IMG/VR virus record: IMGVR_UViG_2778261667_000017
Source of the DNA: a virus
Lineage: Duplodnaviria; Heunggongvirae; Uroviricota; Caudoviricetes
Direction: 5' to 3' (one strand)
DNA: 64,000 bases
The notes under the pieces are model-generated. The model was not told where the DNA came from. It did no database searches and saw nothing but the letters and a program-made list of their open reading frames with translations. The position numbers and the translations under genes are program-made. Shown piece after piece: positions 1 to 48,438 of this stretch (the first letter of the stretch is position 1; each line of letters starts with the position of its first letter).

Positions 1-1128
1 TCACAACGCTACTTTGATCCATCCTTTGCCTCGATCGTCATGATAACGATCGGTTTGCTGTTGTGTTTTATGACCAAGTAGTTTTTGTGTATCTAACCCC
101 TGTTCTTTGTACAGACGTTCAGATAAAGACCTTTGTTCATGGAATGTGGCAGGTGAACCTTCCCCCCAATCAATTCCTGCTAGATCCCTCGCTTTACTGA
201 AATTCATCGTCAATGTATTGGATTTAACCTGCGCGCCACGTTCGGCCTGTGAAGTAGTACGGAAAAAATGTACTAAGTATGGGCTGACTGCGTAGTCACG
301 GCAGCGGGCTACTACATCGCGTAAACTCCAGTTAATCGCGTTGAGACGAAGAGAAAGAGGAATTGCGATTTTGCTCCCGGTCTTTTCCTGAATGATATGG
401 AGATGATCATCCCAAATATCGCTAAATTTCATACGCGAGATATCACCTAACCTCTGACCGGTAACCAGTGCTAACAGCATGGCATTCCCCATATAACGAT
501 GACTGGCATCTGCGATATCAAAGATTTTTTGCCATTCTTCAAGGCTTAACCGTTGTCGGGTAATTTTTCTTCTGGGCTGTTTGGTCGCTAATGCTGGATT
601 ATAGCCAGGAGGGACCTCCCCATAGTGTTGTGCCTCCTTGAATACATCAATTAGAACGGAGCGGACTACTTGCGCCATCCTCGGTTGCCCAGCAGTGATA
701 TACTCGTCAAGCAATTGTGCTATATCCCTTACATCAACGGATGAAATTAACTTCATTCCTGCTCGTTCCCTGAGCAAGGATACTGGTTTGGCTTTCTGTT
801 TATAGGTGTTGAGCTTTATATCGCCACTTTTCAGTCTGTCATCCTGGATTGCTTGATAGCGATCTAACCAGGTTGACGTTGTGATTGCTTTTCCTTTGCT
901 GGTTGCGATCCTGTCACTGATAGCCAGAATCTGCCGGGTTCTTTGCTCAGCCAGGCGTGTATTGGCCTCAGTGGCAATAGCAATGGCTTCAGCTTCGTTT
1001 GCGCCCAAAGAATGAAACTTCCCGGTCACTGGATGCTTATATCGCCAATAGACTTTATTTACTTTTCTGCTATAGAGCGGATACAAGTTCGGGACTGAGA
1101 CATTATTTTTACGTGGTCTGGCTGCCAT
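1..1128 (-). CDS. int: Tyrosine integrase (e14 IntE-like), 375 aa
   Basis: 375-aa ORF; lambdoid integrase N-terminus and C-terminal catalytic region (HxxR...Y); sits at prophage end with xis upstream. Confidence 0.9.
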   Translation of the reverse strand: MAARPRKNNVSVPNLYPLYSRKVNKVYWRYKHPVTGKFHSLGANEAEAIAIATEANTRLAEQRTRQILAISDRIATSKGKAITTSTWLDRYQAIQDDRLKSGDIKLNTYKQKAKPVSLLRERAGMKLISSVDVRDIAQLLDEYITAGQPRMAQVVRSVLIDVFKEAQHYGEVPPGYNPALATKQPRRKITRQRLSLEEWQKIFDIADASHRYMGNAMLLALVTGQRLGDISRMKFSDIWDDHLHIIQEKTGSKIAIPLSLRLNAINWSLRDVVARCRDYAVSPYLVHFFRTTSQAERGAQVKSNTLTMNFSKARDLAGIDWGEGSPATFHEQRSLSERLYKEQGLDTQKLLGHKTQQQTDRYHDDRGKGWIKVAL

Positions 1129-12167: not shown

Positions 12168-12524
12168 ATGCGTGATATGTATGAAGTATTGGACCGCTGG
12201 GGAGCATGGGCTGCAGCAGAAAATAGTGGTGTGGACTGGCAGCCGATAGCGGCTGGTTTCAAGGGACTTTTACCACACGGTAAAAAGTCACGTCTCCAGT
12301 GTGATGATGATGAAGGCATCATGATAGACGGTTGTGTGGCTCGGTTGCGAAAGTATAAACCAGAGGAATATGAGCTGCTCATAGCTCACTTTGTTATTGG
12401 TATCTCATTACGCACTATTGCCAAGAAGAGAAGATGTTCAGATGGCACAATTAGGAAGGAATTGCAGACTGCCATGGGGTTTGTTGACGGCTGTTTAGCA
12501 ATGTTAGCTTATAGTATGGCATAA
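12168..12524 (+). CDS. Q: Late-gene antiterminator Q, 118 aa
   Basis: Paralogous to the second Q at 52486-52863 (shared MRDxxxVLxRWGAWAA, CxxC pairs). Confidence 0.8.
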   Translation: MRDMYEVLDRWGAWAAAENSGVDWQPIAAGFKGLLPHGKKSRLQCDDDEGIMIDGCVARLRKYKPEEYELLIAHFVIGISLRTIAKKRRCSDGTIRKELQTAMGFVDGCLAMLAYSMA

Positions 12525-13718
12525 AAAATAAAATAGATTTACTGCCGATTTTTCAAAAAAGACTGGGAACTGTTTATATCCAACGTAAATAAGGCCTCCA
12601 TAAAACATGGCTGATGCGAGATATTTAACAGTTCTCATCCTTTTTTTAGCTTTATCAATCAAACCTGTAATGCTACTCTTAATACTATCTGCATTATCTT
12701 TGATTTCTTTATTTTCTTCAAACTTTAAATACTTATCGAAAGCGGACTCCACTCGAGAACGTAAGTTGTCGAATGTTTCATTGAATATCTCAATAGAAAT
12801 GTAATTGACTTTTTTTATCATCCAAAGTCCTGCGATAATCAATATTGCTTCGGTTGTTTCATTAGCCTTCACTAAGCCACCAGCTGCTATTAATGCACCG
12901 GGAATAGTCAATGCTTTTGTCTGATTAGATGATATGAATTCGTTAATTTTACTCGTGAACTCAAGATTTTTCTCATCGAGTTCGTTAAGAATTTTATTTA
13001 CAGAAAACCTCTTTGTGTAAATCTCATATAGTTCATCATATTTTTTTCTGACGAGTTCAGTAGAGTTAAGCAAGTCAAAGAAATTGAATGTACCATTTGC
13101 TTTAAATACTTCGTTTATGGCTGAACGTATAACGAGCTTGCGCTCGCTTTTGTGTAAATCATTGATTTTTATTGTGTCGAGAAGCTCCTTTATAATTTCA
13201 TATTTAAGAGACGAGTTCGATAAGCGATTAATCTCGCTATATTGTAAAAAATGCGTGAGTTCGACTGTATAACTTTTGTCTTCATTGGTGAAAAATAAGA
13301 CAGAGCAGTCACTGTTATGATGATCAGCAATTAATGAAAGGATATCTTTCCACATAAAGAAAATATGGATTTTTTCGATGCTTTCATTCTTAGAAGTAGG
13401 GAGTATTAACGGCGTTCCGATGATATAATTTTTCGGAAGAGCGTTTTGGGTGTTTACTCTAGACCAAAAAGACTCAACATTCTCATAAATTATAGCGTCA
13501 TCCCAAGATGAAGCTTGGCGATCTAGCCAAATTTCATTATTTTCGATGCAGTTTGTTGCCTTTTTATAACCTATAGATTGTAACAGTCTAATTATTTCAG
13601 AACTATTTACAATAACAATGCTTTCTTCAAGACTTATGACAGTGTAGTAGCCCTCAACTCTGCTTGAGGCTCCGTTAATAATCTGCGCTAATCTTGATAA
13701 GTCATCAGCAATTGTCAT
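12504..13718 (-). CDS. Hypothetical protein with C-terminal transmembrane helices, 404 aa (candidate effector)
   Basis: AT-rich; soluble N-domain then predicted TM segments ALTIPGALIAAGGLV, AILIIAGLWMI, YLASAMFYGGLIYVGY; 3' end overlaps Q by 21 bp. Confidence 0.75.
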   Translation of the reverse strand: MTIADDLSRLAQIINGASSRVEGYYTVISLEESIVIVNSSEIIRLLQSIGYKKATNCIENNEIWLDRQASSWDDAIIYENVESFWSRVNTQNALPKNYIIGTPLILPTSKNESIEKIHIFFMWKDILSLIADHHNSDCSVLFFTNEDKSYTVELTHFLQYSEINRLSNSSLKYEIIKELLDTIKINDLHKSERKLVIRSAINEVFKANGTFNFFDLLNSTELVRKKYDELYEIYTKRFSVNKILNELDEKNLEFTSKINEFISSNQTKALTIPGALIAAGGLVKANETTEAILIIAGLWMIKKVNYISIEIFNETFDNLRSRVESAFDKYLKFEENKEIKDNADSIKSSITGLIDKAKKRMRTVKYLASAMFYGGLIYVGYKQFPVFFEKSAVNLFYFLCHTIS

Positions 13719-13720
13719 TA

Positions 13721-14896
13721 TTAGCTGTCTCTATATCTTTTGAGTTCATCATAATTTGCCTGACTCAATTTTATCACAATTTCGCATTTGTTGTCAGTGA
13801 GAATTACAGGCTTATTTGACTTTTCGTCTCCAATAGCTCCACGCATTATTTTCAACTTAAAATTATTGTCGTTATCTGCCACTTCAATTGTAAGCGCGCT
13901 TTCAGCTGCTTTAGGAGTTGGTTCAAATTGAGGATCAATCTGGAAACCATTAAGATTAACAAAATCGACAAACGTTCCCTTACATTTGTGTGAATCAGTC
14001 AGGCATGAGTCAATTATTTTTGAAATATCCTCTATCTTAACGGACTTATTTCCGTATTTATCTTTTGATTTTTTTTCCAGTAAGGATTTAACTTCATTGT
14101 CAATAGTATCACGCAGTACACGACCGAGTGAGTTTTTACTAGCAAAAATATCTATAGCACTGAATAATTGCTGAATGCTTCTTTTATTGTCCGAATCATG
14201 TCGGCAACCTAATGAGTCTTTGAAAAAATCGCTTTTAGATTTACCTTGCAAGAAATGTACATATGAGTCACCCTTGTTTTCTGGATAACTGGCTTCGAAT
14301 AAAGTTAAATCGAACATCGCAGCCTGCCGTAAGGCATCGGTATTAATTGGATTTAATCTTGTTGGGGTCAACTTATCCGAATCAAAGTCATAGGCGCTTT
14401 GTTTATCAACCATTACGATTAGAAGTTTTCCCAAATCCTCTGGTTCGGTAGACTTATAGTGGATGAAAACAACGCTCCCCCCCTGAAGTTGGGCAACTCT
14501 CGATTCGTTATTAGCATTATGTTTAAGCTTCTCTATTATAGCTCTAGATAAATCAATGAATTCATTATTTTTATTAATGTATTTTTTTAGGATCGTAGGA
14601 ATGGATGAAGGGTTGTGATCTGAGTCTAGGAAGTTATGAAATTTGTTTTTTCGGCTAAATTTTTTCTCAATTCTGGTTATGAATTCAGATGTGACTTCAT
14701 TTTTTAGATCCCAAACTTCACCTAATCGATAATCAAATGCTCTTGAATCATTTTTTTCAAGATTTGCTGTTACAGCACCAATAGGAAAGTACGATTGTTT
14801 GCCCAGCACTACAACATGAGGCGTGGCGCCGCATTTATCGCAAGCTACAGTTGGGTCGTCAAGAACATTGCCACATTCTAAACAAGTTATATCCAT
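13721..14896 (-). CDS. Zinc-ribbon + NdpA/YejK-like nucleoid-associated-protein-family protein, 391 aa (candidate sensor)
   Basis: N-terminal CLECG-x12-CDKCG zinc ribbon; GGSVVFIHY...MFDLTLFE...YVHFLQGKSKSDFF align to the remembered YejK core; AT-rich. Confidence 0.75.
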   Translation of the reverse strand: MDITCLECGNVLDDPTVACDKCGATPHVVVLGKQSYFPIGAVTANLEKNDSRAFDYRLGEVWDLKNEVTSEFITRIEKKFSRKNKFHNFLDSDHNPSSIPTILKKYINKNNEFIDLSRAIIEKLKHNANNESRVAQLQGGSVVFIHYKSTEPEDLGKLLIVMVDKQSAYDFDSDKLTPTRLNPINTDALRQAAMFDLTLFEASYPENKGDSYVHFLQGKSKSDFFKDSLGCRHDSDNKRSIQQLFSAIDIFASKNSLGRVLRDTIDNEVKSLLEKKSKDKYGNKSVKIEDISKIIDSCLTDSHKCKGTFVDFVNLNGFQIDPQFEPTPKAAESALTIEVADNDNNFKLKIMRGAIGDEKSNKPVILTDNKCEIVIKLSQANYDELKRYRDS

Positions 14897-29991: not shown

Positions 29992-30438
29992 TTACTGTGC
30001 GAACACGCAATTTCGGCCTGATGGGGAGCCGACAATTCTGGACATTTTTTCGCAAATAATAGTTACCTGTTCTCCTTTTTTAAGAGCAGCAGCTGTTGAT
30101 TTTTCAGAGTCTTGCATCTCCATTCTTGCTGGCATGAATTCATTTTCAGTTCTGAATTTAATAATTATAGAGTCAGTAAAGTCCTTATCAATGGATTGTA
30201 CGATACCTCTAACGGCGATTAATTTACCTTTTAACTGTTCATCGGTAGCGACTTCATTTTCTTCATACTCTTTAAACAGCTGTCGAGCAGTAGTGTTGTA
30301 GATTTCTTTTTGCGGTGCCGCAGCTTCCGTATCGGATGAGTATGAAGAATTAGAGCCTTTATCGTTATTGCCTGCAAAATATCCAATAATCACCAACCCG
30401 ATGAAAATATATAAAATCCATTTTAATAATTTCTTCAT
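29992..30438 (-). CDS. Membrane-anchored hypothetical protein with possible OB-fold domain, 148 aa (reverse-strand moron)
   Basis: N-terminal TM anchor (KKLLKWILYIFIGLVIIGYFAG); AT-rich; antisense within tail operon. Confidence 0.7.
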   Translation of the reverse strand: MKKLLKWILYIFIGLVIIGYFAGNNDKGSNSSYSSDTEAAAPQKEIYNTTARQLFKEYEENEVATDEQLKGKLIAVRGIVQSIDKDFTDSIIIKFRTENEFMPARMEMQDSEKSTAAALKKGEQVTIICEKMSRIVGSPSGRNCVFAQ

Positions 30439-33501: not shown

Positions 33502-33926
33502 TGGAACTGTGGCTGACGGTGAACGGTAAACGCACCTGCGCCAGCGCACCGCTGGATCCGCTGACCCGCGCCGTGGTGATTTCCCTGTTCACCTGGCGGC
33601 GGGCGGAGCCTGATGACAACGCCGACGTCCCGATGGGATGGTGGGGGGATTCCTGGCCTGCGGTACAGAATGACCGTTACGGTTCTCGACTGTGGCTGCT
33701 TCAGCGCAGCAAACTGACCAATCAGCTGGTACAGACGGTAAGGGGATATATCCGCGAATGCCTGCAATGGATGATTGATGATGGCGTGGTGTCCCGTATT
33801 GATCTGGATATCCGTCGCACCGGGATTAATGAGCTGGGTAACAGTATCACCCTCTGGCGTCGTGACGGACCGGTAATGATTTCTTTTGATGATCTGTGGA
33901 GTGCGATAACGCATGGCGGACAGTGA
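33498..33926 (+). CDS. Baseplate protein (Mu gp46 / gpW-like), 142 aa
   Basis: Position and size. Confidence 0.75.
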   Translation: MMELWLTVNGKRTCASAPLDPLTRAVVISLFTWRRAEPDDNADVPMGWWGDSWPAVQNDRYGSRLWLLQRSKLTNQLVQTVRGYIRECLQWMIDDGVVSRIDLDIRRTGINELGNSITLWRRDGPVMISFDDLWSAITHGGQ

Positions 33927-34971
33927 ATTTCAGCGCCCGACGCTGGCAGAAAATATCAGTATGCTCCGTAACGATTTATTCGCCAGGCTGGACGTCAGCG
34001 ACACGCTCCGGCGCATGGATGAAGACGTGCGGGCAAAGGTGTATGCGGCGGCGCTGCATACGGTTTACGGGTACATCGATTATCTGGCAATGAACATGCT
34101 GCCTGACCTGTGCGATGAGTTCTGGCTGGCGCGACATGCTGCGATGAAACGGTGTCCGCGCAAGGGTGCCACAGCTGCCAGCGGGTATATGCGCTGGGAA
34201 GGCGTCAGCGATGGCCTGAAGGTGACCGCCGGGAGTGTTATTCAGCGCGATGACCTGGTTCAGTACACGGCAACTGCCGATGCAACCAGCTCCGGTGGTG
34301 TCCTGCGCCTGCCGATCGCCTGTTCAACTGCAGGCGCGGTCGGTAACGCTGACGACGGTACGGCATTAATCCTGGTCACGCCGGTGAATGGTCTGCCGTC
34401 TTCCGGTGTGGCTGACACCCTGACAGGCGGATTTGATACTGAAGAGCTGGAAACGTGGCGCGCCCGCGTCATTGAGCGGTATTACTGGACGCCGCAGGGC
34501 GGGGCTGACGGGGACTATGTTGTCTGGGCTAAAGAAGTGCCCGGCATTACCCGCGCATGGACATACCGTCACTGGATGGGAACGGGAACTGTCGGTGTGA
34601 TGATTGCCAGCAGTGACCTGATTAATCCCATTCCGGAAGAATCAACGGAAACGGCAGCAAGACAACATATCGGGCCACTGGCCCCGGTGGCAGGCTCTGA
34701 TTTGTATGTATTCAGGCCGGTGGCGCATAAAGTGGATTTTCATATCCGCGTGACGCCGGACACACCAGAAATACGGGCTGCCATTACCGCGGAGTTGCGT
34801 TCGTTCCTGCTGCGTGATGGTTATCCGCAGGGAGAGCTGAAGGTGTCGCGTATCAGTGAAGCGATTTCCGGTGCGAACGGGGAATACAGCCATCAGTTGC
34901 TTGCACCGGCAGACAATATCTCCATTGCGAAAAACGAACTGGCGGTTCTGGGGACGATTTCATGGACGTGA
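33913..34971 (+). CDS. Baseplate J-like protein (Mu gp47), 352 aa
   Basis: Baseplate J pattern; position. Confidence 0.85.
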
Positions 34972-35546
34972 CAAACGATGATTACATCCGTCTGTTGTCA
35001 GCACTGTTGCCGCCCGGTCCGGCGTGGTCAGCCAGCGATCCGGCGATTGCCGGTGCAGCACCGTCATTAACCCGTGTTCATCAGCGTGCGGATGCCCTGA
35101 TGCGGGAGCTGGATCCGCGCACCACCACCGAACTGATAAACCGCTGGGAGCGTCTGTGCGGCCTGCCGGATGAATGTATTCCCGCAGGGACACAGACCCT
35201 TCGCCAGCGTCAGCAACGGCTGGATGCGAAGGTTAACCTGGCGGGCGGCATCAACGAGGATTTTTATCTTGCACAGCTTGCTGCCCTGGGCAGACCAGAT
35301 GCCACCATCACGCGATACGACAAAAGCACCTTCACCTGCTCATCGGCCTGTACTGACGCGGTGAATGCGCCGGAATGGCGGTATTACTGGCAGGTCAACA
35401 TGCCAGCTGCCACCAACACCACCTGGATGACATGTGGTGATCCCTGTGATTCCGCACTGCGTATCTGGGGCGACACCGTTGTCGAGTGTGTGCTTAACAA
35501 ACTCTGCCCTTCGCATACCTACGTAATTTTTAAATATCCGGAGTAA
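34962..35546 (+). CDS. Tail protein (Mu gp48-like, DUF2313), 194 aa
   Basis: Position before tail fibre; size. Confidence 0.75.
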
Positions 35547-35549
35547 TCC

Positions 35550-36212
35550 ATGCATCGTATAGACACGAAAACCGCGCAGAAGGATAAGTTCGGCGCGGGT
35601 AAGAGCGGTTTTACCCGTGGTAACCCCCAGACCGGCACACCTGCCACCGATCTGGATGATGACTACTTTGACATGTTGCAGGAAGAACTCTGCAGCGTGG
35701 TGGAGGCATCCGGTGTCAGCCTGGAGAAGGGGCGGCATGACCAGCTGCTTACCGCGCTTCGTGCGCTGCTGTTAAGCCGCAAGAATCCGTTTGGCGATAT
35801 CAAATCGGATGGCACGGTGAAAACGGCTCTCGAAAACCTTGGTTTGGGAGAAGCGGCAAAACGGGATGTGGGGACAGGGGAAAATCAGATACCGGACATG
35901 GCCTCTTTTGCCAGTGGTGATGGATGGATGAAATTACCCAACGGGAAAATCCTGCAATATGGTCGTGGTGCGGTTACGCCGACATTATCGACGCAAACAA
36001 TGAGAATTACATTCAGCATCCCTTTCCCCAAAAAAGCGGACTGCGCCATGCTTACTCATTCTGGTGATGGCGGTGCGCCTTTAGGCGCTGGGCGAGGGTT
36101 CGTGATGACTGCAGAAGGCCCAACGTTAACCGGCTTTAATTCTGCTTACAGAACGTCATCAACCAGCGACACGGTATCGATGAATTACAGTTGGTGGGCT
36201 GTTGGTGAGTAA
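35550..36212 (+). CDS. stf: Tail fibre protein; constant N-terminus fused to the currently expressed variable C-terminus, 220 aa
   Basis: Conserved Mu S / e14 StfE-type N-terminus ([37 protein letters not shown]); crossover site inside the gene. Confidence 0.8.
35834..35853. repeat. Left inverted repeat of invertible tail-fibre segment (pix/gix-like site)
   Basis: aaaccttggtttgggagaag; matches reverse complement of 37717-37736 at 19/20. Confidence 0.75.
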
Positions 36213-36223
36213 TTTTATTCAGG

Positions 36224-36676
36224 GTGATTTATATGAACGAATATGTTTATAGCGCAAGGCATAATGCTTTTTTCCCTGTGGATATGATTGATAAATATAA
36301 ATCAGAGGGATGGGATTTATCAGACGCTAAGGAAGTAAATCAAAATATTATCAGTGAGTTTATGGCTGAACCGCCACAAGGAAAAATCCGTATTGCCGGA
36401 GATGATGGGCTGCCTGCGTGGGCAGATATTCCTCCACCCACGCATGAAGAGCTTATTGAAATTACTGAATCAGAAAGACAGCTACTAATTAACCAGGCCA
36501 ACGAATACATGAACAGTAAGCAATGGCCCGGTAAAGCCGCTATTGGTCGTCTGAAAGGTGAGGAACTGGCGCAATATAATTTGTGGCTGGATTATCTGGA
36601 TGCACTGGAGCTGGTTGATACCTCCAGTGCGCCAGATATTGAATGGCCTACGCCTCCGGCAGTTCAGGCCAGATAA
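36224..36676 (+). CDS. tfa: Tail fibre assembly protein (current orientation), 150 aa
   Basis: Tfa-like C-terminus; follows tail fibre. Confidence 0.8.
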   Translation: MIYMNEYVYSARHNAFFPVDMIDKYKSEGWDLSDAKEVNQNIISEFMAEPPQGKIRIAGDDGLPAWADIPPPTHEELIEITESERQLLINQANEYMNSKQWPGKAAIGRLKGEELAQYNLWLDYLDALELVDTSSAPDIEWPTPPAVQAR

Positions 36677-37250
36677 CATCCGGCGCGGTGCTGGTATCTG
36701 TTGCCGTCACCGCGTCAATGTAATCCAGCACAGCGTTAAGTCTGGTTGTTTCTGCCTGCGTCAGTTTACGTCCGGCCTGCAATTTCAGTTGAATCAGACT
36801 GATGGAAGCCATTGCTGCATCAATCAGTGACTGGCGCTGTGCTTCTGCCGCTTCTACTGCGGCACCGTGTTGTGCCTCAGTATCTGTCACCCATTTTTCA
36901 CCATCCCATTTATCGTATGGCGTTAACGGGGCGATAGTGGTTGTATTTTCGGGATAGTCGCCTAGTGCTGTGATTCCTTTGGCATCTCCCGTTTCGGTGT
37001 TATAGACGATTTCACCGCGATGGTCTGACACATATTCCCATGATTTTAAATCCACAGAACGGCAAATTGTATAACCAGCCTTAGATGTACCAGGAGCGTC
37101 TAAACAGGAATATGCTGGAATACCGACACCCACTGCAAGATATTCAGTTGATGCAGAAATATATTCCCGCGTCTCACCATCATAGTTATAGACGGTAATA
37201 TTCCCCGCCTTCGTGGTAATAAGCTCGCTATTTAATACGGCGTTATCCAT
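36648..37250 (-). CDS. tfa: Tail fibre assembly protein (alternate orientation), 200 aa
   Basis: Tfa-like C-terminus shared with 36224-36676; convergent overlap typical of invertible segments. Confidence 0.8.
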   Translation of the reverse strand: MDNAVLNSELITTKAGNITVYNYDGETREYISASTEYLAVGVGIPAYSCLDAPGTSKAGYTICRSVDLKSWEYVSDHRGEIVYNTETGDAKGITALGDYPENTTTIAPLTPYDKWDGEKWVTDTEAQHGAAVEAAEAQRQSLIDAAMASISLIQLKLQAGRKLTQAETTRLNAVLDYIDAVTATDTSTAPDVIWPELPEA

Positions 37251-37771
37251 TATGCAGCCCTCACGATATAGTTAAATGCAATATTTCGTGGACGGGTTTC
37301 ACTCCCGCCAGTATTACCGATACTCCCTCGTGAATGAAGTGTCGGTGATGGGATCAGAGTTCCGCCTGCACTGGTAGCATCCAGCCCCTTGCCCTGTGTA
37401 TATGTATTTCGGAAGATTGTTGCCAGCTCCCATTCCTCTTTTGAATCATGCCCATCGTTAGCTACAACAAAATGACGGTGCTTTTCCAGCATTCCGGCCT
37501 GAATACTCAATAAAACACGTCCTGCATCAATACCGCGCCCGTCATCCCAGCCACGAATAAACTCACCGCGTAAATCAGGTAATTTATTTGTTGGATAAGC
37601 CTTTGCCAGTTCCGGGTATTCTTCAGCAGAAAATGCCGCACCGTTGCATTTCAGCCAGCCTGTTGGCGGTGTGACTGAAGACCATGGAACAGGCACACCA
37701 ACAGGTAATGCAGAGCCTTCTCCCAAACCAACGTTTATGAAAATGCAGAAATAACGAGCAAATGGCATCAT
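37250..37771 (-). CDS. Alternate tail-fibre variable C-terminal segment (fused to stf N-terminus after inversion)
   Basis: Tail-fibre C-terminal sequence; crossover site within its first codons. Confidence 0.7.
   Translation of the reverse strand: MMPFARYFCIFINVGLGEGSALPVGVPVPWSSVTPPTGWLKCNGAAFSAEEYPELAKAYPTNKLPDLRGEFIRGWDDGRGIDAGRVLLSIQAGMLEKHRHFVVANDGHDSKEEWELATIFRNTYTQGKGLDATSAGGTLIPSPTLHSRGSIGNTGGSETRPRNIAFNYIVRAA
37717..37736. repeat. Right inverted repeat of invertible segment (pix/gix-like site)
   Basis: cttctcccaaaccaacgttt; resembles remembered gix consensus; adjacent to pin. Confidence 0.75.
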
Positions 37772-37797
37772 TCCTGCTTTTGTCAGGGGGATCTACC

Positions 37798-38352
37798 ATG
37801 CTTATTGGCTATGTACGCGTATCAACAAATGACCAGAACACAGATCTACAACGTAATGCGCTGAACTGTGCAGGATGCGAGCTGATTTTTGAAGACAAGA
37901 TAAGCGGTACAAAGTCCGAAAGGCCGGGACTGAAAAAACTGCTCAGGACATTATCGGCAGGTGACACGCTGGTGGTCTGGAAACTGGACCGGCTGGGGCG
38001 CAGTATGCGGCATCTTGTCGTGCTGGTGGAGGAGTTGCGCGAACGAGGCATCAACTTTCGTAGTCTGACGGATTCAATTGATACCAGTACCCCAATGGGG
38101 CGCTTTTTCTTTCATGTGATGGGTGCCCTGGCTGAAATGGAGCGTGAACTGATTGTTGAAAGAACAAAAGCTGGACTGGAAGCTGCTCGCGCACAGGGAC
38201 GAATTGGTGGACGTCGTCCCAAACTTACACCAGAACAATGGGAACAGGCCGGACGATTAATTGCATCAGGAGTTCCTCGCCAGAAGGTGGCGATTATCTA
38301 TGATGTTGGTGTGTCAACTTTGTATAAGAGGTTTCCTGCAGGGGATAAATAA
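37798..38352 (+). CDS. pin: Serine DNA invertase Pin (e14 type), 184 aa
   Basis: Near-identical to remembered e14 Pin (MLIGYVRVSTNDQNTDLQRNAL...). Confidence 0.95.
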   Translation: MLIGYVRVSTNDQNTDLQRNALNCAGCELIFEDKISGTKSERPGLKKLLRTLSAGDTLVVWKLDRLGRSMRHLVVLVEELRERGINFRSLTDSIDTSTPMGRFFFHVMGALAEMERELIVERTKAGLEAARAQGRIGGRRPKLTPEQWEQAGRLIASGVPRQKVAIIYDVGVSTLYKRFPAGDK

Positions 38353-38458
38353 AGTTAAAGACACTTTGTGTACAAAAGAAAGTAAAACAACAGCAACTTG
38401 TTGCAATTTTATCAATAAAAGTAGTATTGTCGTGAAAAATTGATTAAAGATTAATATT

Positions 38459-39292
38459 ATGCATGTTTTTGATAATAATGGAATTGAACTGAAAGCTGAG
38501 TGTTCGATAGGTGAAGAGGATGGTGTTTATGGTCTAATCCTTGAGTCGTGGGGGCCGGGTGACAGAAACAAAGATTACAATATCGCTCTTGATTATATCA
38601 TTGAACGGTTGGTTGATTCTGGTGTATCCCAAGTCGTAGTATATCTGGCGTCATCATCAGTCAGAAAACATATGCATTCTTTGGATGAAAGAAAAATCCA
38701 TCCTGGTGAATATTTTACTTTGATTGGTAATAGCCCCCGCGAGATACGCTTGAAGATGTGTGGTTATCAGGCTTATTTTAGTCGTACGGGGAGAAAGGAA
38801 ATTCCTTCCGGCAATAGAACGAAACGAATATTGATAAATGTTCCAGGTATTTATAGTGACAGTTTTTGGGCGTCTATAATACGTGGAGAACTATCAGAGC
38901 TTTCACAGCCTACAGATGATGAATCGCTTCTGAATATGAGGGTTAGTAAATTAATTAAGAAAACGTTGGGTCAACCCGAGGGCTCCAGGAAACCAGTTGA
39001 GGTAGAAAGACTACAAAAAGTTTATGTCCGAGACCCGATGGTAAAAGCTTGGATTTTACAGCAAAGTAAAGGTATATGTGAAAACTGTGGTAAAAATGCT
39101 CCGTTTTATTTAAATGATGGAAACCCATATTTGGAAGTGCATCATGTAATTCCCCTGTCTTCAGGTGGTGCTGATACAACAGATAACTGTGTTGCCCTTT
39201 GTCCGAATTGTCATAGAGAATTGCACTATAGTAAAAATGCAAAAGAACTAATCGAGATGCTTTACGTTAATATAAACCGATTACAGAAATAA
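38459..39292 (+). CDS. mcrA: McrA type IV (modified-cytosine) restriction endonuclease, HNH, 277 aa
   Basis: Near-identical to remembered e14 McrA; C-terminal HNH (CENCGKNAP...HHVIPLSSGG...CPNCH). Confidence 0.95.
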   Translation: MHVFDNNGIELKAECSIGEEDGVYGLILESWGPGDRNKDYNIALDYIIERLVDSGVSQVVVYLASSSVRKHMHSLDERKIHPGEYFTLIGNSPREIRLKMCGYQAYFSRTGRKEIPSGNRTKRILINVPGIYSDSFWASIIRGELSELSQPTDDESLLNMRVSKLIKKTLGQPEGSRKPVEVERLQKVYVRDPMVKAWILQQSKGICENCGKNAPFYLNDGNPYLEVHHVIPLSSGGADTTDNCVALCPNCHRELHYSKNAKELIEMLYVNINRLQK

Positions 39293-39528
39293 AATTGTTT
39301 ATTAAAGTCACATTTAAGACGTAATACCCTACAGGGTAAAAATTTTCTCTGATCTTAACTTCTGCAAATGTTAACTGCTATTTTTATGCTAAAAATGGTT
39401 ATCAAAACTCAAAAACACATGTTTATAATCAATGAGTTATAGAAATGCTAAGGGCTAATGAGTTATATGCAAATTAGTAAAATTATGTTGCTATCTCAAA
39501 TAGTTACGATTTAGTCATCTAACTAATG

Positions 39529-39690
39529 CTGCGCCATATGGGTTGGACTGAAGCGGCTGACCTGATTGTTAAAGGTATGGAAGGCGCAATCAATGCCAAG
39601 ACCGTAACCTATGACTTCGAACGTCTGATGGAAGGCGCTAAACTGCTGAAATGTTCAGAGTTTGGTGACGCGATCATCAAGAATATGTAA
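39529..39690 (+). pseudogene. icd: icd 3'-terminal fragment (last 53 codons of isocitrate dehydrogenase) at prophage junction
   Basis: Translates to [53 protein letters not shown]; no icd 5' part upstream. Confidence 0.85.
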
Positions 39691-39803: not shown

Positions 39804-40946
39804 CTATGCTGTTTTGATATCTACGATAATCCAGTCTTTACCACGATCATCATTGTATCGGTCGGTCATTTTTCTGGATTTATGACCTAACAACTTTTGC
39901 GTATCCAGACCCTGTTCCCGATATAACCGTTCTGACAGAGATCGCTGCTCATGAAATGTGGGCGCAGTTCCTTGCTCCCATTTTATGCCACATTTTTCCC
40001 TGGCCTTTTTAAAAGCCGTTGTAAGAGTATTTGCAGACACCTGGTCTCCTCTGTTTGCTTGAGAGGTAGTGTGACGGTAATGGACCAGATATTTACTAAC
40101 AACAGCATCCCTGCACTGAGATATAACTTCACGAAGGGTAATATTCAGAGCATCGCATTTCAGGTTAAGCGGAATAGCAAGTTTTGAACCGGTTTTTTCC
40201 TGAGTAATGTGCAACATGTCGTCCCAGATATCAGAGAATTTCAAATTGCAGATATCGCCTAAACGTTGTCCAGTGACAAGAGCAAGTAGCATCCCGCATT
40301 TTAAATAGGGCTGCCGTCTGCTTACGCTGTCAAATATTGCCTGCCATTCGGGCAGTGATAATCTTTGGCGGTTTACTCGATTTCGCGGTTGTTTTGTTGC
40401 CTGCGCTGGGTTAAATCCTGGCGGAACATGTCCGGCGTGTTGTGCTTCTTTGAAGACGTCGATCAACACCATTCTCACGACTTGCGCCATCCTGTTATGA
40501 CCTTCAGCCTTTACAGCATCAATTATTTCGGCAATATCAAGTGCGGTAATATCCTTGAGGTGTTGCATTCCACAATGCTCACGGAAAAGACGAATGGGTT
40601 TGCCTTTTTGCCGATAGGAGTTGGGTCTTAGTTCATTATGTTGCAGCCTGTCCTCCTGGATAGAAATATATTTATCAAGCCATTCTGTCACCGTAATGTC
40701 TGAGCGCCTGCCTTTCATTCTTTCCAGACGCTCATTGACGCTTAATATTTGTCGGGTACGTTGTTCAGCAATAATGGTATTTGCTTCAGTAGCAACTTGT
40801 TTTGCTTCATTCTCATCAGTTCCTAAGCTATGAAAACGACCGGATAGTGGATGTTTGTATTGCCAATATACCTTTCCGGTTCGCTTATCTAATTTGCAAT
40901 ATAAATTGGGTATAGAGATTTTGTGAGATCGGGGGCTAGCAGCCAT
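39804..40946 (-). CDS. int: Tyrosine integrase of prophage 2, 380 aa
   Basis: Paralogous to integrase at 1-1128; adjacent to icd fragment and xis. Confidence 0.9.
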   Translation of the reverse strand: MAASPRSHKISIPNLYCKLDKRTGKVYWQYKHPLSGRFHSLGTDENEAKQVATEANTIIAEQRTRQILSVNERLERMKGRRSDITVTEWLDKYISIQEDRLQHNELRPNSYRQKGKPIRLFREHCGMQHLKDITALDIAEIIDAVKAEGHNRMAQVVRMVLIDVFKEAQHAGHVPPGFNPAQATKQPRNRVNRQRLSLPEWQAIFDSVSRRQPYLKCGMLLALVTGQRLGDICNLKFSDIWDDMLHITQEKTGSKLAIPLNLKCDALNITLREVISQCRDAVVSKYLVHYRHTTSQANRGDQVSANTLTTAFKKAREKCGIKWEQGTAPTFHEQRSLSERLYREQGLDTQKLLGHKSRKMTDRYNDDRGKDWIIVDIKTA

Positions 40947-47096: not shown

Positions 47097-47395
47097 GTTG
47101 ACCTCCGATGATTGACTTTGGCGGTGACGCGCCGGGTGCTTATCTTCCGGTTGCCGTCGTGCAGCTGCACTTCACGTCACCCCACCCCAAAGCCAACTAC
47201 TCTTTGGTTCCCGCATTTCGGCGGGACAATCCCATCAATGTTAAAGAGCCTGCCAATCTGTTCCGTTTGGCTACCAGCGTCCTGCTGATGACTTAAATTT
47301 AAGATTTCTTTAATTGCTGGTCAAGGGTGTTTTTGAAGAAAACTTAAATTTTATTGCGAAGTTTAAGTTTTGCTTTGATTTTTAAAGGAAAGAAA

Positions 47396-47420
47396 AAAAG
47401 GGGCGAATGCCCCTTATGGA
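47396..47420 (-). terminator. Rho-independent terminator directly after the repressor stop
   Basis: On minus strand: ggggc-attc-gcccc followed by tttttttt. Confidence 0.55.
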
Positions 47421-48064
47421 AGGTTTGCTATTTTTGCATCGACAACTACACCGATGATTTTGCAGTTCCCGTTGATCTCAATCATCGGATATTGTGGGTT
47501 AAGTGGTTTTAGAAACCTTCTGCCAGCATCAATAACTAACTTCTTGAAAGTTGCCTCGTTTTCTCCTTCGAGCTTTGCCACTACCAGCTTCCCATTACGA
47601 GGTTCTACTTCAGGATCGACTAGTATTATCATCCCTTCCGGGATGCTAAGACCGGCTGGAGCCGTCATCGAATCACCCTTTACGTCCAGCCAAAACGAAT
47701 CTTCTGAACAATCTACGGTTGTATCGTACCAGTTATCTATTGCACGCTTATGATATGGCTCTACAGCTTCCATCCAACATCCTGCGCTTACCCAACTAAT
47801 TAGAGGATACGAACCTCTTGGATCATGCCTGCTGTGATAGGCAATGTTTGAAAGACTATCTTCTCCTTTCAACAAGTAATCAGGGGAGCACTGTAAAGCC
47901 TTGGCTAAAGCCAATAGGTTTTCGCCATTGGGCTCAGTTTCAGAACGCTCCCATTGGGAAATAGCAACATTAGACACGCCAACCATCTTGCCAAGGGCAG
48001 CCTGCCTAATCTTAAGTTCTTTTCTGCGAGCGCGAATACGCTCACCCATCAGTTGTGTATTCAT
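47414..48064 (-). CDS. c2: P22 C2-type repressor (HTH + S24 peptidase), 216 aa
   Basis: Near-identity to remembered P22 C2 N-terminus (MNTQLMGERIRARRKELKIRQAALGKMVGVSNVAISQWERSETEPNGENLLAL). Confidence 0.95.
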   Translation of the reverse strand: MNTQLMGERIRARRKELKIRQAALGKMVGVSNVAISQWERSETEPNGENLLALAKALQCSPDYLLKGEDSLSNIAYHSRHDPRGSYPLISWVSAGCWMEAVEPYHKRAIDNWYDTTVDCSEDSFWLDVKGDSMTAPAGLSIPEGMIILVDPEVEPRNGKLVVAKLEGENEATFKKLVIDAGRRFLKPLNPQYPMIEINGNCKIIGVVVDAKIANLP

Positions 48065-48330: not shown

Positions 48331-48438
48331 GCAAATTGCTCTTTAACAGTCATGGTCCTTATTCCCGCCGAAATGCGGGAATACAACGCGCATCAGTTGG
48401 TGCGTATAACTTCTTATTTGTTAAGGAAATACTTACAT

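Follow-up and report, generated by a model that had tools for sequence, protein, structure and literature searches.

The window analysed here, a 64,000-nucleotide (64-kb) stretch of DNA, contains at 35834-37736 a region that, judged by sequence comparison, is the Pin-controlled invertible P segment of an Escherichia coli prophage of the e14 family. A Pin/P-segment inversion switch is the best explanation for this locus and we regard it as very probably the right one. The switch is real but ordinary: the e14 P segment with its PinE invertase is a named and experimentally studied system, and what is described below was therefore already known and is not new. Both Plasterk and van de Putte 1985 (EMBO J 4:237) and Mehta et al. 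2004 (BMC Microbiol 4:4) reportedly deal with the e14 P segment and PinE. The corresponding genes of close relatives carry the labels pinE, tfaE and ymfQ in RefSeq and, going by the references cited in one later paper, literature on the Pin/P-segment switch goes back to 1985 (PMC4272514). The cassette alleles in the window are not those of E. coli K-12 but represent an allelic variant within the family, found in around 131 complete genomes. Coordinates of the features discussed are collected in Table 1.

Table 1 Features of the invertible locus and its surroundings, in window coordinates
Feature	Position	Strand	Remarks
ymfQ, Mu gp48-like baseplate gene	34962-35546		immediately precedes fibre gene
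Constant 5' part of tail-fibre gene	35550-35840	+	residues 1-97, outside invertible segment
Left (fibre-side) crossover site	35827-35852		26 bp, CTCTCGAAAACC-TT-GGTTTGGGAGAA; core TT at 35839-35840
Invertible segment	35841-37729		1,889 bp between cores; e14 P segment counterpart
Expressed variable fibre tip	35853-36212	+	residues 102-220; Pfam Gp53-like_C, E = 3e-12
Assembly (chaperone) gene of expressed tip, TfaP position	36233-36676	+	Pfam Caudo_TAP, E = 2e-31
Assembly gene of silent tip, TfaE type	36648-37250	-	Pfam Caudo_TAP, E = 4e-32
Silent alternative fibre tip (StfE type)	37250-37717	-	Pfam Collar domain, E = 1e-14
Right (pin-side) crossover site	37718-37743		26 bp, TTCTCCCAAACC-AA-CGTTTATGAAAA; core at 37730-37731
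pin (pinE), small serine DNA invertase	37798-38352	+	184 aa; Pfam Resolvase and HTH_7
Probable recombinational (Fis-dependent) enhancer	37816-37887		within 5' end of pin; position from homology
mcrA	38459-39292		downstream of pin
icd fragment	39526-39690		icd attachment site

Crossover sites bounding the segment

The segment is bounded by a left arm, AAACCTTGGTTTGGGAGAAG (35834-35853), and a right arm, CTTCTCCCAAACCAACGTTT (37717-37736), which are inverted with respect to one another, complementary at 19 of 20 positions and separated by 1,863 nt. These are precisely the 20-bp inverted repeats of the preliminary description. The functional units, however, are imperfectly palindromic 26-bp sites that extend 7 nt further outward than the 20-nt arms. 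Their cores, TT on the left and AA on the right, are one dinucleotide read from opposite strands, and the sole mismatch between the arms lies on the flank side, adjacent to the core. The sites had been described as gix/pix-like, and this is borne out: both have the register of Mu gix as well as that of the crossover point curated for P1 cix, and both 20-nt arms are identical to those of the e14 prophage of K-12, where each occurs once in the locus. The 26-bp sites of Mu share the AAACC-NN-GGTTT register, and when the window sites were searched for in 6.2 kb of Mu the best matches were exactly gixL and gixR. The core is TT in the window and TC in Mu; in the C segment of P1, which is inverted by Cin, it is TT as in the window, and the inner half-site of P1 reads TTCTCttAAACC against TTCTCccAAACC in the window. 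The arms of Mu are 34 bp long and exact, compared to 20 nt and 19/20 here.

At 20 nt the arms are short, which is the one feature that would favour a chance inverted repeat flanking convergent genes and having no recombination function, a reading that we consider next to impossible. In 30 random 64-kb sequences generated from a first-order Markov model (dinucleotide-matched), arm pairs of such quality lying 500-5,000 nt apart occurred at a mean of 0.03 per 64 kb, and an 18-nt site pattern allowing up to three mismatches matched only the two crossover sites in the window, against 0.06 matches expected. This chance test, the gix and cix register of the sites and the inversion that separates the sibling isolates CX07 and CX15, with breakpoints exactly at the arms (see below), already refute it.

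The chance test also brought up a second inverted repeat of 19/20 quality in the window (47208-47226 and 48363-48381). Each of its arms is itself a GC-rich hairpin, so that a repressor-like gene is here bracketed by two terminator-like stem-loops, and the repeat was rejected as a crossover pair.

The Pin invertase and its probable enhancer

The pin gene begins 55 nt past the right crossover site, immediately outside the segment as the preliminary description had it, and its product belongs, as also proposed there, to the Gin/Cin/Hin/Pin group of invertases. Three lines of evidence point to this: the protein combines an N-terminal catalytic Resolvase domain (Pfam, E = 1.5e-51), with the nucleophilic Ser9, and a C-terminal helix-turn-helix (HTH_7), its residues 1-181 align with the Gin crystal structure 3uj3 (E = 5.5e-95) and it is 79.6% identical to Mu Gin. 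Of the first 140 residues, 126 are identical to those of P1 Cin, and only four of 184 residues differ from K-12 PinE. The ORF is full length and the protein is 100% identical to Pin of strain GF131. Enhancer-dependent invertases are marked by basic residues in helix B (47, 48 and 51 in Hin) and by a Q-x-x-R-L patch in helix 1 (PMC3798978). Pin possesses Ser9, R42, K46, K47, R50 and Q150-A-G-R153-L154, matching this invertase-specific set, and the Gin equivalents are visible in the structure alignment. Scanning with NCBIfam gave no family at cut-off for Pin and no matches for the fibre and chaperone proteins. No second serine invertase that might act in trans was found in the 64-kb window, pin being the only such gene there.

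Enhancers of the invertase family act in cis, are about 60-70 bp in length, contain two Fis sites and lie within the invertase gene. Nucleotides 19-90 of pin align without gaps, at 79% identity, with the enhancer annotated at nucleotides 19-90 of cin in the P1 record, and this homology probably places the enhancer of the window at the corresponding position. The putative pin enhancer is 85 bp from the pin-side core, the same distance as the homologous stretch in Mu; in P1, cin is found at the opposite end of the segment, so that the enhancer is ~475 bp from cixL. Across six invertases, synonymous-codon identity shows a modest rise in this part of the gene (0.57-0.69 for nucleotides 1-54 and 0.56 for nucleotides 73-108, against ~0.40 elsewhere). 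A simple regular expression for Fis sites, applied to pin, K-12 pinE and gin, gave one conserved match at nucleotides 71-85 along with several non-specific ones; it was not discriminating and did not resolve two sites in pin.

The mechanism that we propose for the window is borrowed from the H segment of Salmonella, whose invertase Hin belongs to the same subclass as Pin and acts on 26-bp sites with the help of an enhancer that lies within the invertase gene and is bound by Fis (PMC3798978). Both this H segment and the G segment of Mu can be inverted by PinE (PMC12529663). Pin dimers would bind both 26-bp sites and Fis would bind the enhancer in the 5' end of pin, with the two sites being brought together on supercoiled DNA. 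Pin, acting via Ser9, would then cut the identical TT/AA cores with a 2-bp stagger, one pair of subunits would rotate by 180 degrees and religation would leave the 1.89 kb between the sites inverted. A requirement for Fis and for negatively supercoiled DNA is assumed, and the family is the source from which we infer dependence on Fis and enhancer, strand-exchange chemistry and a change of host range. The outcome differs from that in Salmonella in that Hin inverts a promoter whereas the switch in the window exchanges alternative coding ends.

Fibre tips and natural orientations of the segment

Upstream of the fibre gene are genes matching Baseplate_J and Mu_Gp48 (Pfam), which are Mu-like, and the constant head of the fibre itself weakly matches the N-terminal part of fibre S of Mu (E = 0.005). 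The left core falls in the Leu97 codon, and the inner half-site, common to both cassettes, encodes residues G98-L-G-E101, in agreement with the earlier placing of the left site at the LGLGE codons. The segment contains, as had been claimed, two fibre tips in opposite orientation, each with its own Caudo_TAP gene. The two assembly genes are convergent, their 3' ends overlapping by 29 bp, and the assembly protein at the TfaP position is 100% identical to the product of a gene annotated in strain GF131. Both C-termini, whose comparison with known domains had been suggested, match tail-fibre C-terminal or receptor-binding-type domains: the expressed tip resembles the C-terminal end of a short tail fibre (PDB 9zd7) and the silent tip the receptor-binding region of T4 gp37 and the short tail fibre (PDB 2xgf and 9cuy; E ~1e-16). 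Gene position and domain homology suggest that the protein serves as the receptor-binding fibre of the virion.

In the present orientation, nothing but an 18-codon leader, with its ATG at 37771, is attached to the silent tip. When the segment is inverted computationally, this tip fuses in frame to the head and becomes fibre residues 102-256, so that the expected swap of C-termini yields an alternative fibre of 256 aa in place of the current 220 aa, with 101 residues in common; in both states the head is thus continued in frame. A pin-proximal ORF beginning with the leader is likewise retained in both states (173 aa now, 137 aa after the flip). For annotation, the 173-aa ORF at 37250-37771 is neither an independent gene nor a pseudogene but an alternative 3' end, at present silent, for the fibre gene at 35550. 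Since the segment excludes the fibre promoter, the start codon and codons 1-97, each orientation would provide the same head with a different receptor-binding tip, and each would also place that tip's own assembly chaperone directly downstream. With two fibres available, a population of lysogens would release virions with two adsorption specificities.

Both orientations occur naturally at exactly these arms. Among 5,426 complete E. coli genomes, the exact pair of alleles found in the window has the window orientation in 61 and the flipped one in 70 and, for the family more widely, an StfE-type tip adjoins pin in 947 genomes and is fused to the head in 513. The chromosomes of CX07 and CX15 are of equal length, and the 9 kb around the locus are identical bar one inversion, an exact reverse-complement block of 1,810 bp with breakpoints at the arms of the window, in which the mismatch between the arms remains with the flank. 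The observation that had been named as one that would undermine the switch, namely a single orientation throughout, is thus contradicted for the family and for the allele pair alike, in complete genomes and in sibling isolates. In K-12, sequencing and PCR have revealed mixed orientations within clonal cultures (PMC4272514); the wild type is ~30% inverted by qPCR and overproduction of PinE drives inversion (PMC12529663). A practical consequence for genome assembly is that both orientations are legitimate states, and differences between assemblies at this locus should be taken neither for errors nor for strain markers.

These results also bear on whether the locus might be a fossil, in which the sites and pin persist but the switch has fallen idle in this strain and the different orientations among genomes date from old events. 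We have one sequence of the strain, and a sigma-70 scan of 35300-38500 (seven promoter-like matches against 4.3 expected) revealed no convincing promoter upstream of pin and none for the leader ORF at 37771, whilst a terminator scan of the same interval gave nothing meaningful. Nevertheless, idleness is very unlikely: the GF131-identical Pin ORF is full length with every catalytic and invertase-specific residue in place, neither site differs from its counterpart in K-12, where activity has been shown by experiment, the inversion is what distinguishes sibling isolates whose loci are otherwise identical and the two orientations of the allele pair are present at a ratio near 1:1.

The carrier prophage and related switches

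The prophage in the window is ~39.7 kb long and, judged from its genes, structurally complete: none of its head, tail and baseplate genes is truncated, and together they specify a complete head and a contractile tail. Comparison of the window ORFs with the annotation of K-12 MG1655 gave the locus order ymfQ-stfP-tfaP-tfaE-stfE-pinE-mcrA at the icd attachment site, and the e14 prophage of MG1655 has the same gene order (ymfQ-stfP-tfaP-tfaE-stfE-pinE-mcrA-icd'). The constant head (stfP up to the left site) and pin are ~97% identical in the two, tfaE aligns with the TfaE-type gene of the window over its full length and most of the StfE tip is conserved. The MG1655 reference also has the same orientation as the window, with the StfE-type tip silent beside pin. 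The differences lie in the cassettes: K-12 StfP is a different allele from the expressed tip of the window, with strong divergence starting right after the left arm, the N-terminal half of K-12 tfaP differs from the window chaperone at the P position, the middle of the K-12 StfE tip differs from that of the window and the segment between the cores is 1,825 bp in K-12 against 1,889 bp here. In addition, K-12 e14 is a truncated remnant of 15 kb, whereas the window prophage is full length. Unlike in K-12, therefore, the switch sits in a prophage with full-length structural genes, which could suit it to the study of tip recognition. Escherichia phage vB_EcoM-689R6 (ON470584.1), with an invertase 96.7% identical to Pin, was considered as possible proof that phages of this kind are viable but was rejected, because it is a 'partial genome' that includes the host genes icd, rluE and mnmA and lacks the invertible segment.

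The completeness of the prophage is relevant to a further reading, in which the locus is a domesticated anti-phage switch and the product that matters, instead of the virion fibre, is a leader–tip chimera that arises at the pin-proximal junction and is expressed by the host. The 18-residue leader, joined to whichever tip faces pin, would block adsorption by other phages in the manner of StfE2. This protein is created in K-12 when the P segment is inverted by PinQ, PinR or PinE, and blocks adsorption of T2 (PMC12529663). Inversion in the window could, on the same reading, also be driven in trans by the invertases of other prophages, and the retention of an equivalent of the leader ORF in both states (173 aa and 137 aa) is in keeping with it. 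However, the sigma-70 scan found no promoter for the leader ORF and the published StfE2 claim concerns a single laboratory strain; moreover, since the window prophage is structurally complete, the ancestral role in the virion is available to it as it is not to truncated e14 of K-12. We consider the anti-phage reading unlikely, although it is compatible with a Pin/P-segment host-range switch as the best explanation.

Any StfE2 analogue in the window would be built from a tip whose allele differs from K-12 StfP, so that T2 blocking is not transferable. For the same reason, the flipped state would make a 137-aa chimera consisting of the 18-residue leader and the Gp53-like tip. That this chimera is a switchable adsorption blocker acting against a different set of phages from that of K-12 StfE2 (T2) is less likely still; if it were true, P segments of the e14 family would act as a library of invertible anti-phage decoys at the level of the population, in addition to switching phage host range.

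As a Pin/P-segment host-range switch, the locus has the same layout as the Mu G segment with its invertase Gin: a constant head is followed by a site, a tip with its chaperone, the opposed chaperone and tip, a second site and, just outside, the invertase. The Mu segment is ~3 kb and its fibre S ~500 aa, whereas the window fibre is short at 220 or 256 aa; the Mu tips are unrelated to those of the window, similarity being weak and limited to the constant head. The P1 segment is 4.2 kb, with a fibre much longer than that of the window.

The invertible tail-fibre locus and its crossover sites

We identify the locus as the e14 P segment, the Pin-invertible tail-fibre DNA segment of the E. coli e14 prophage family. 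K-12 MG1655 has the same gene order, ymfQ-stfP-tfaP-tfaE-stfE(pseudogene)-pinE-mcrA-icdC, in which StfP and TfaP are the fibre tip and assembly chaperone in the expressed position and StfE and TfaE the silent, pin-side pair, and in the closest genomes RefSeq annotation names genes pinE, tfaE and ymfQ. Pairwise alignment with K-12 shows that both arms of the inverted repeat are identical and that the constant fibre head, pin and the shared 3′ end of the assembly genes are about 97% identical. The sequences part directly after the left arm, however: at the expressed tip and in the N-terminal half of the chaperone that goes with it, the window carries an allele different from K-12 StfP and TfaP, and the StfE-type tip is unlike K-12 in its middle portion. 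The K-12 locus was reportedly first described by Plasterk and van de Putte in 1985, and an analysis of e14 is said to have been made by Mehta and colleagues in 2004. The observation made in the preliminary description is confirmed and its interpretation supported, in a system already known and annotated. The locus departs from the textbook example in K-12 on two points only: its cassette alleles, which about 130 further complete genomes also carry, and its prophage, which is structurally complete.

Features of the window
Feature	Coordinates	Strand	Remarks
e14-family prophage	1-39690		intE to icd fragment
intE	10-1128	-	
Two-gene insert	12504-14896	-	
148-aa protein gene	29992-30438	-	
Baseplate_J gene	33913-34971		upstream of switch
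Mu gp48-like gene	34962-35546		upstream of switch
220-aa fibre gene	35550-36212	+	C-terminal part matches Pfam Gp53-like_C
Fibre-side 26-bp site	35827-35852		CTCTCGAAAACC-TT-GGTTTGGGAGAA
Left arm	35834-35853		AAACCTTGGTTTGGGAGAAG
Caudo_TAP assembly gene	36233-36676	+	
Second Caudo_TAP gene	36648-37250	-	29-bp overlap with first (36648-36676)
ORF with phage Collar domain	37250-37771	-	first 18 codons outside or within right arm
Right arm	37717-37736		CTTCTCCCAAACCAACGTTT
Pin-side 26-bp site	37718-37743		TTCTCCCAAACC-AA-CGTTTATGAAAA
Pin	37798-38352	+	184 aa; Resolvase + HTH_7
Counterpart of Cin enhancer	37816-37887		within pin
McrA	38459-39292	+	
icd fragment	39526-39690	+	
Second prophage	39804-64000		
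Second prophage integrase	39804-40946	-	
Inverted pair, first arm	47208-47226		19 nt
S24/LexA-like repressor	47414-48064	-	216 aa
Inverted pair, second arm	48363-48381		19 nt

The inverted repeat first noticed around the segment is real: its arms are complementary at 19 of 20 positions with a spacing of 1,863 nt, whereas inverted pairs of equal quality 500-5,000 nt apart averaged 0.03 in 30 first-order Markov (dinucleotide-matched) 64-kb sequences. When the window was scanned with an 18-nt arm-derived pattern, allowing up to three mismatches, both arms and nothing else matched (0.06 expected). As there are just two copies, the arrangement is therefore two-state, and a multi-site shufflon is ruled out. 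The arms are the inner portions of 26-bp sites, with the single arm mismatch on the flank side, adjoining the core. In a scan of 6.2 kb of Mu the best matches of either site are gixL and gixR, the crossover sites of Mu Gin; with the curated crossover of the P1 record as anchor, cix (the P1 Cin sites), gix and the window's sites share one register and the half-site consensus TTCTCnnAAACC.

The left core dinucleotide sits in the fibre gene's codon for Leu97, and the inner half-site, common to both cassettes, encodes residues G98-L-G-E101. The proposal that inversion swaps the fibre C-terminus at this site is borne out in silico, inversion between the cores giving, in frame, an uninterrupted 256-aa fibre that ends in the Collar-domain tip and has its first 101 residues in common with the present one. 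This silent tip is similar to T4 gp37 and short tail fibres in their collar and receptor-binding region (E about 1e-16 against PDB 2xgf and 9cuy). For the expressed tip the similarity is to the C-terminal end of another short tail fibre (9zd7, E = 3e-4), and for the constant head it is weak, to Mu fibre S in its N-terminal part (E = 0.005). The overlapping 3′ ends of the convergent assembly genes, a stretch nearly identical to K-12, leave no space for an intervening terminator inside the segment.

Pin and a candidate enhancer

The pin gene lies just outside the segment, as previously noted, and encodes a Gin/Cin-type invertase. Pin residues 1-181 align with the Mu Gin crystal-structure sequence 3uj3 (E = 5.5e-95); identity is 79.6% with Gin of the Mu genome and 126/140 with P1 Cin over the first 140 residues. 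Pin carries Ser9, the basic helix-B residues K46, K47 and R50 and a Q150-x-x-R153-L154 patch; these helix-B positions and the patch are peculiar to Fis/enhancer-dependent invertases (PMC3798978).

The P1 record places the Cin enhancer at nt 19-90 of cin. Its counterpart in pin is gapless and 79% identical, and in Mu the enhancer counterpart lies 85 bp from the invertase-side core, equal to the window's pin-side spacing. In a comparison of six invertases, identical amino acids were encoded by identical codons at a frequency of 0.57-0.69 over nt 1-54 and 0.56 over nt 73-108, against about 0.40 elsewhere, a pattern that is consistent with, but no proof of, two protein-binding ends of a candidate enhancer. 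Searching with a simple regular expression for Fis sites was no help in placing it.

Orientation of the segment in relatives

Whilst the window is a single sequence, both orientations, for which the preliminary description had suggested looking, are found in its relatives. The StfE-type tip next to pin, the window's state, occurs as a full-length junction in 947 of 5,426 complete E. coli genomes, and the constant head fused to the StfE-type tip in 513. For the exact allele pair over the whole 3.1-kb region, 61 genomes have the window's orientation and 70 the computed flipped form. Isolates from the same study also differ, NWU_1 having one orientation and NWU_3 and NWU_4 the opposite. The sibling isolates CX07 and CX15 have chromosomes of identical length, each with an e14-like prophage at dusA, and their 9-kb loci are identical but for a 1,810-bp block that is an exact reverse complement. 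This block ends at the same arms as in the window and the arm mismatch remains with the flank, as would be expected if exchange takes place at the core.

Clonal K-12 cultures hold both orientations, according to paired-end mapping and PCR (Goldberg et al.; PMC4272514). A 2025 paper reports about 30% inversion in wild-type K-12 by qPCR, flipping of the K-12 segment by each of PinE, PinQ and PinR, and inversions in 33% of 562 deposited genomes (PMC12529663).

The record ON470584.1 (Escherichia phage vB_EcoM-689R6), a 'partial genome' that includes the host genes icd, rluE and mnmA, lacks the invertible segment: its nucleotides 1-2400 begin with pin and mcrA, followed directly, on the opposite strand, by the constant fibre head. 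Its assembly looks broken or collapsed at the locus, which can arise when a sample holds both orientations.

The carrier prophage and its neighbours

In the e14-family prophage the integrase, excisionase, terminase, portal, protease, capsid, sheath, tube, tape measure and every baseplate gene each match annotated relatives in one unbroken stretch, at 92-100% identity. Judged by gene content, the prophage looks complete, unlike K-12 e14, so that the classical reading, in which the switch lets released virions hedge their bets on host range, can apply here. A less probable alternative, by analogy with K-12, for which the 2025 paper put the idea forward (PMC12529663), is that a host-expressed chimera at the pin-side junction may block other phages; the 18-codon leader ORF is retained in both orientations, although the tip concerned is an allele other than that of K-12 and no promoter was found. 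McrA, the type IV methyl-directed restriction enzyme adjoining pin, is full length and 100% identical to the protein of strain GF131, and its match to the PADLOC mREase_IV model runs the whole length (E = 1.5e-201).

Two inserts were seen in this prophage. The first lies between the lysis genes and the gene for antiterminator Q. One of its products, of 391 aa, combines a zinc-ribbon-like motif at the N-terminus with a 37-kD nucleoid-associated protein domain (NA37, E = 1e-23); the other, of 404 aa, has no match in Pfam or PADLOC. Since strain NIST0056 has a gene annotated Kiwa KwaB-like here, variable genes of accessory or defence function may have a hotspot at this position. The second, on the opposite strand between the tape-measure and DNA-circularisation genes, encodes a protein of 148 aa that has a hydrophobic segment at its N-terminus and carries a tRNA_anti-like (OB-fold) domain; GF131, a close relative, has only about 60 bp here.

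Directly after the icd fragment comes a second, lambda-like prophage, and the two thus occupy the icd attachment site in tandem. This second prophage has exo/bet/gam, an S24 repressor, O/P-like replication genes, Q, iss and genes for terminase and portal. Strain 3347558 has it alone, beside intact icd. A perfect 19-nt inverted pair brackets its repressor gene; taken singly, either arm forms a GC-rich hairpin (TCCCGC...GCGGGA), and we therefore reject the pair as recombination sites. The arms look like terminator-type stem-loops around the immunity gene.
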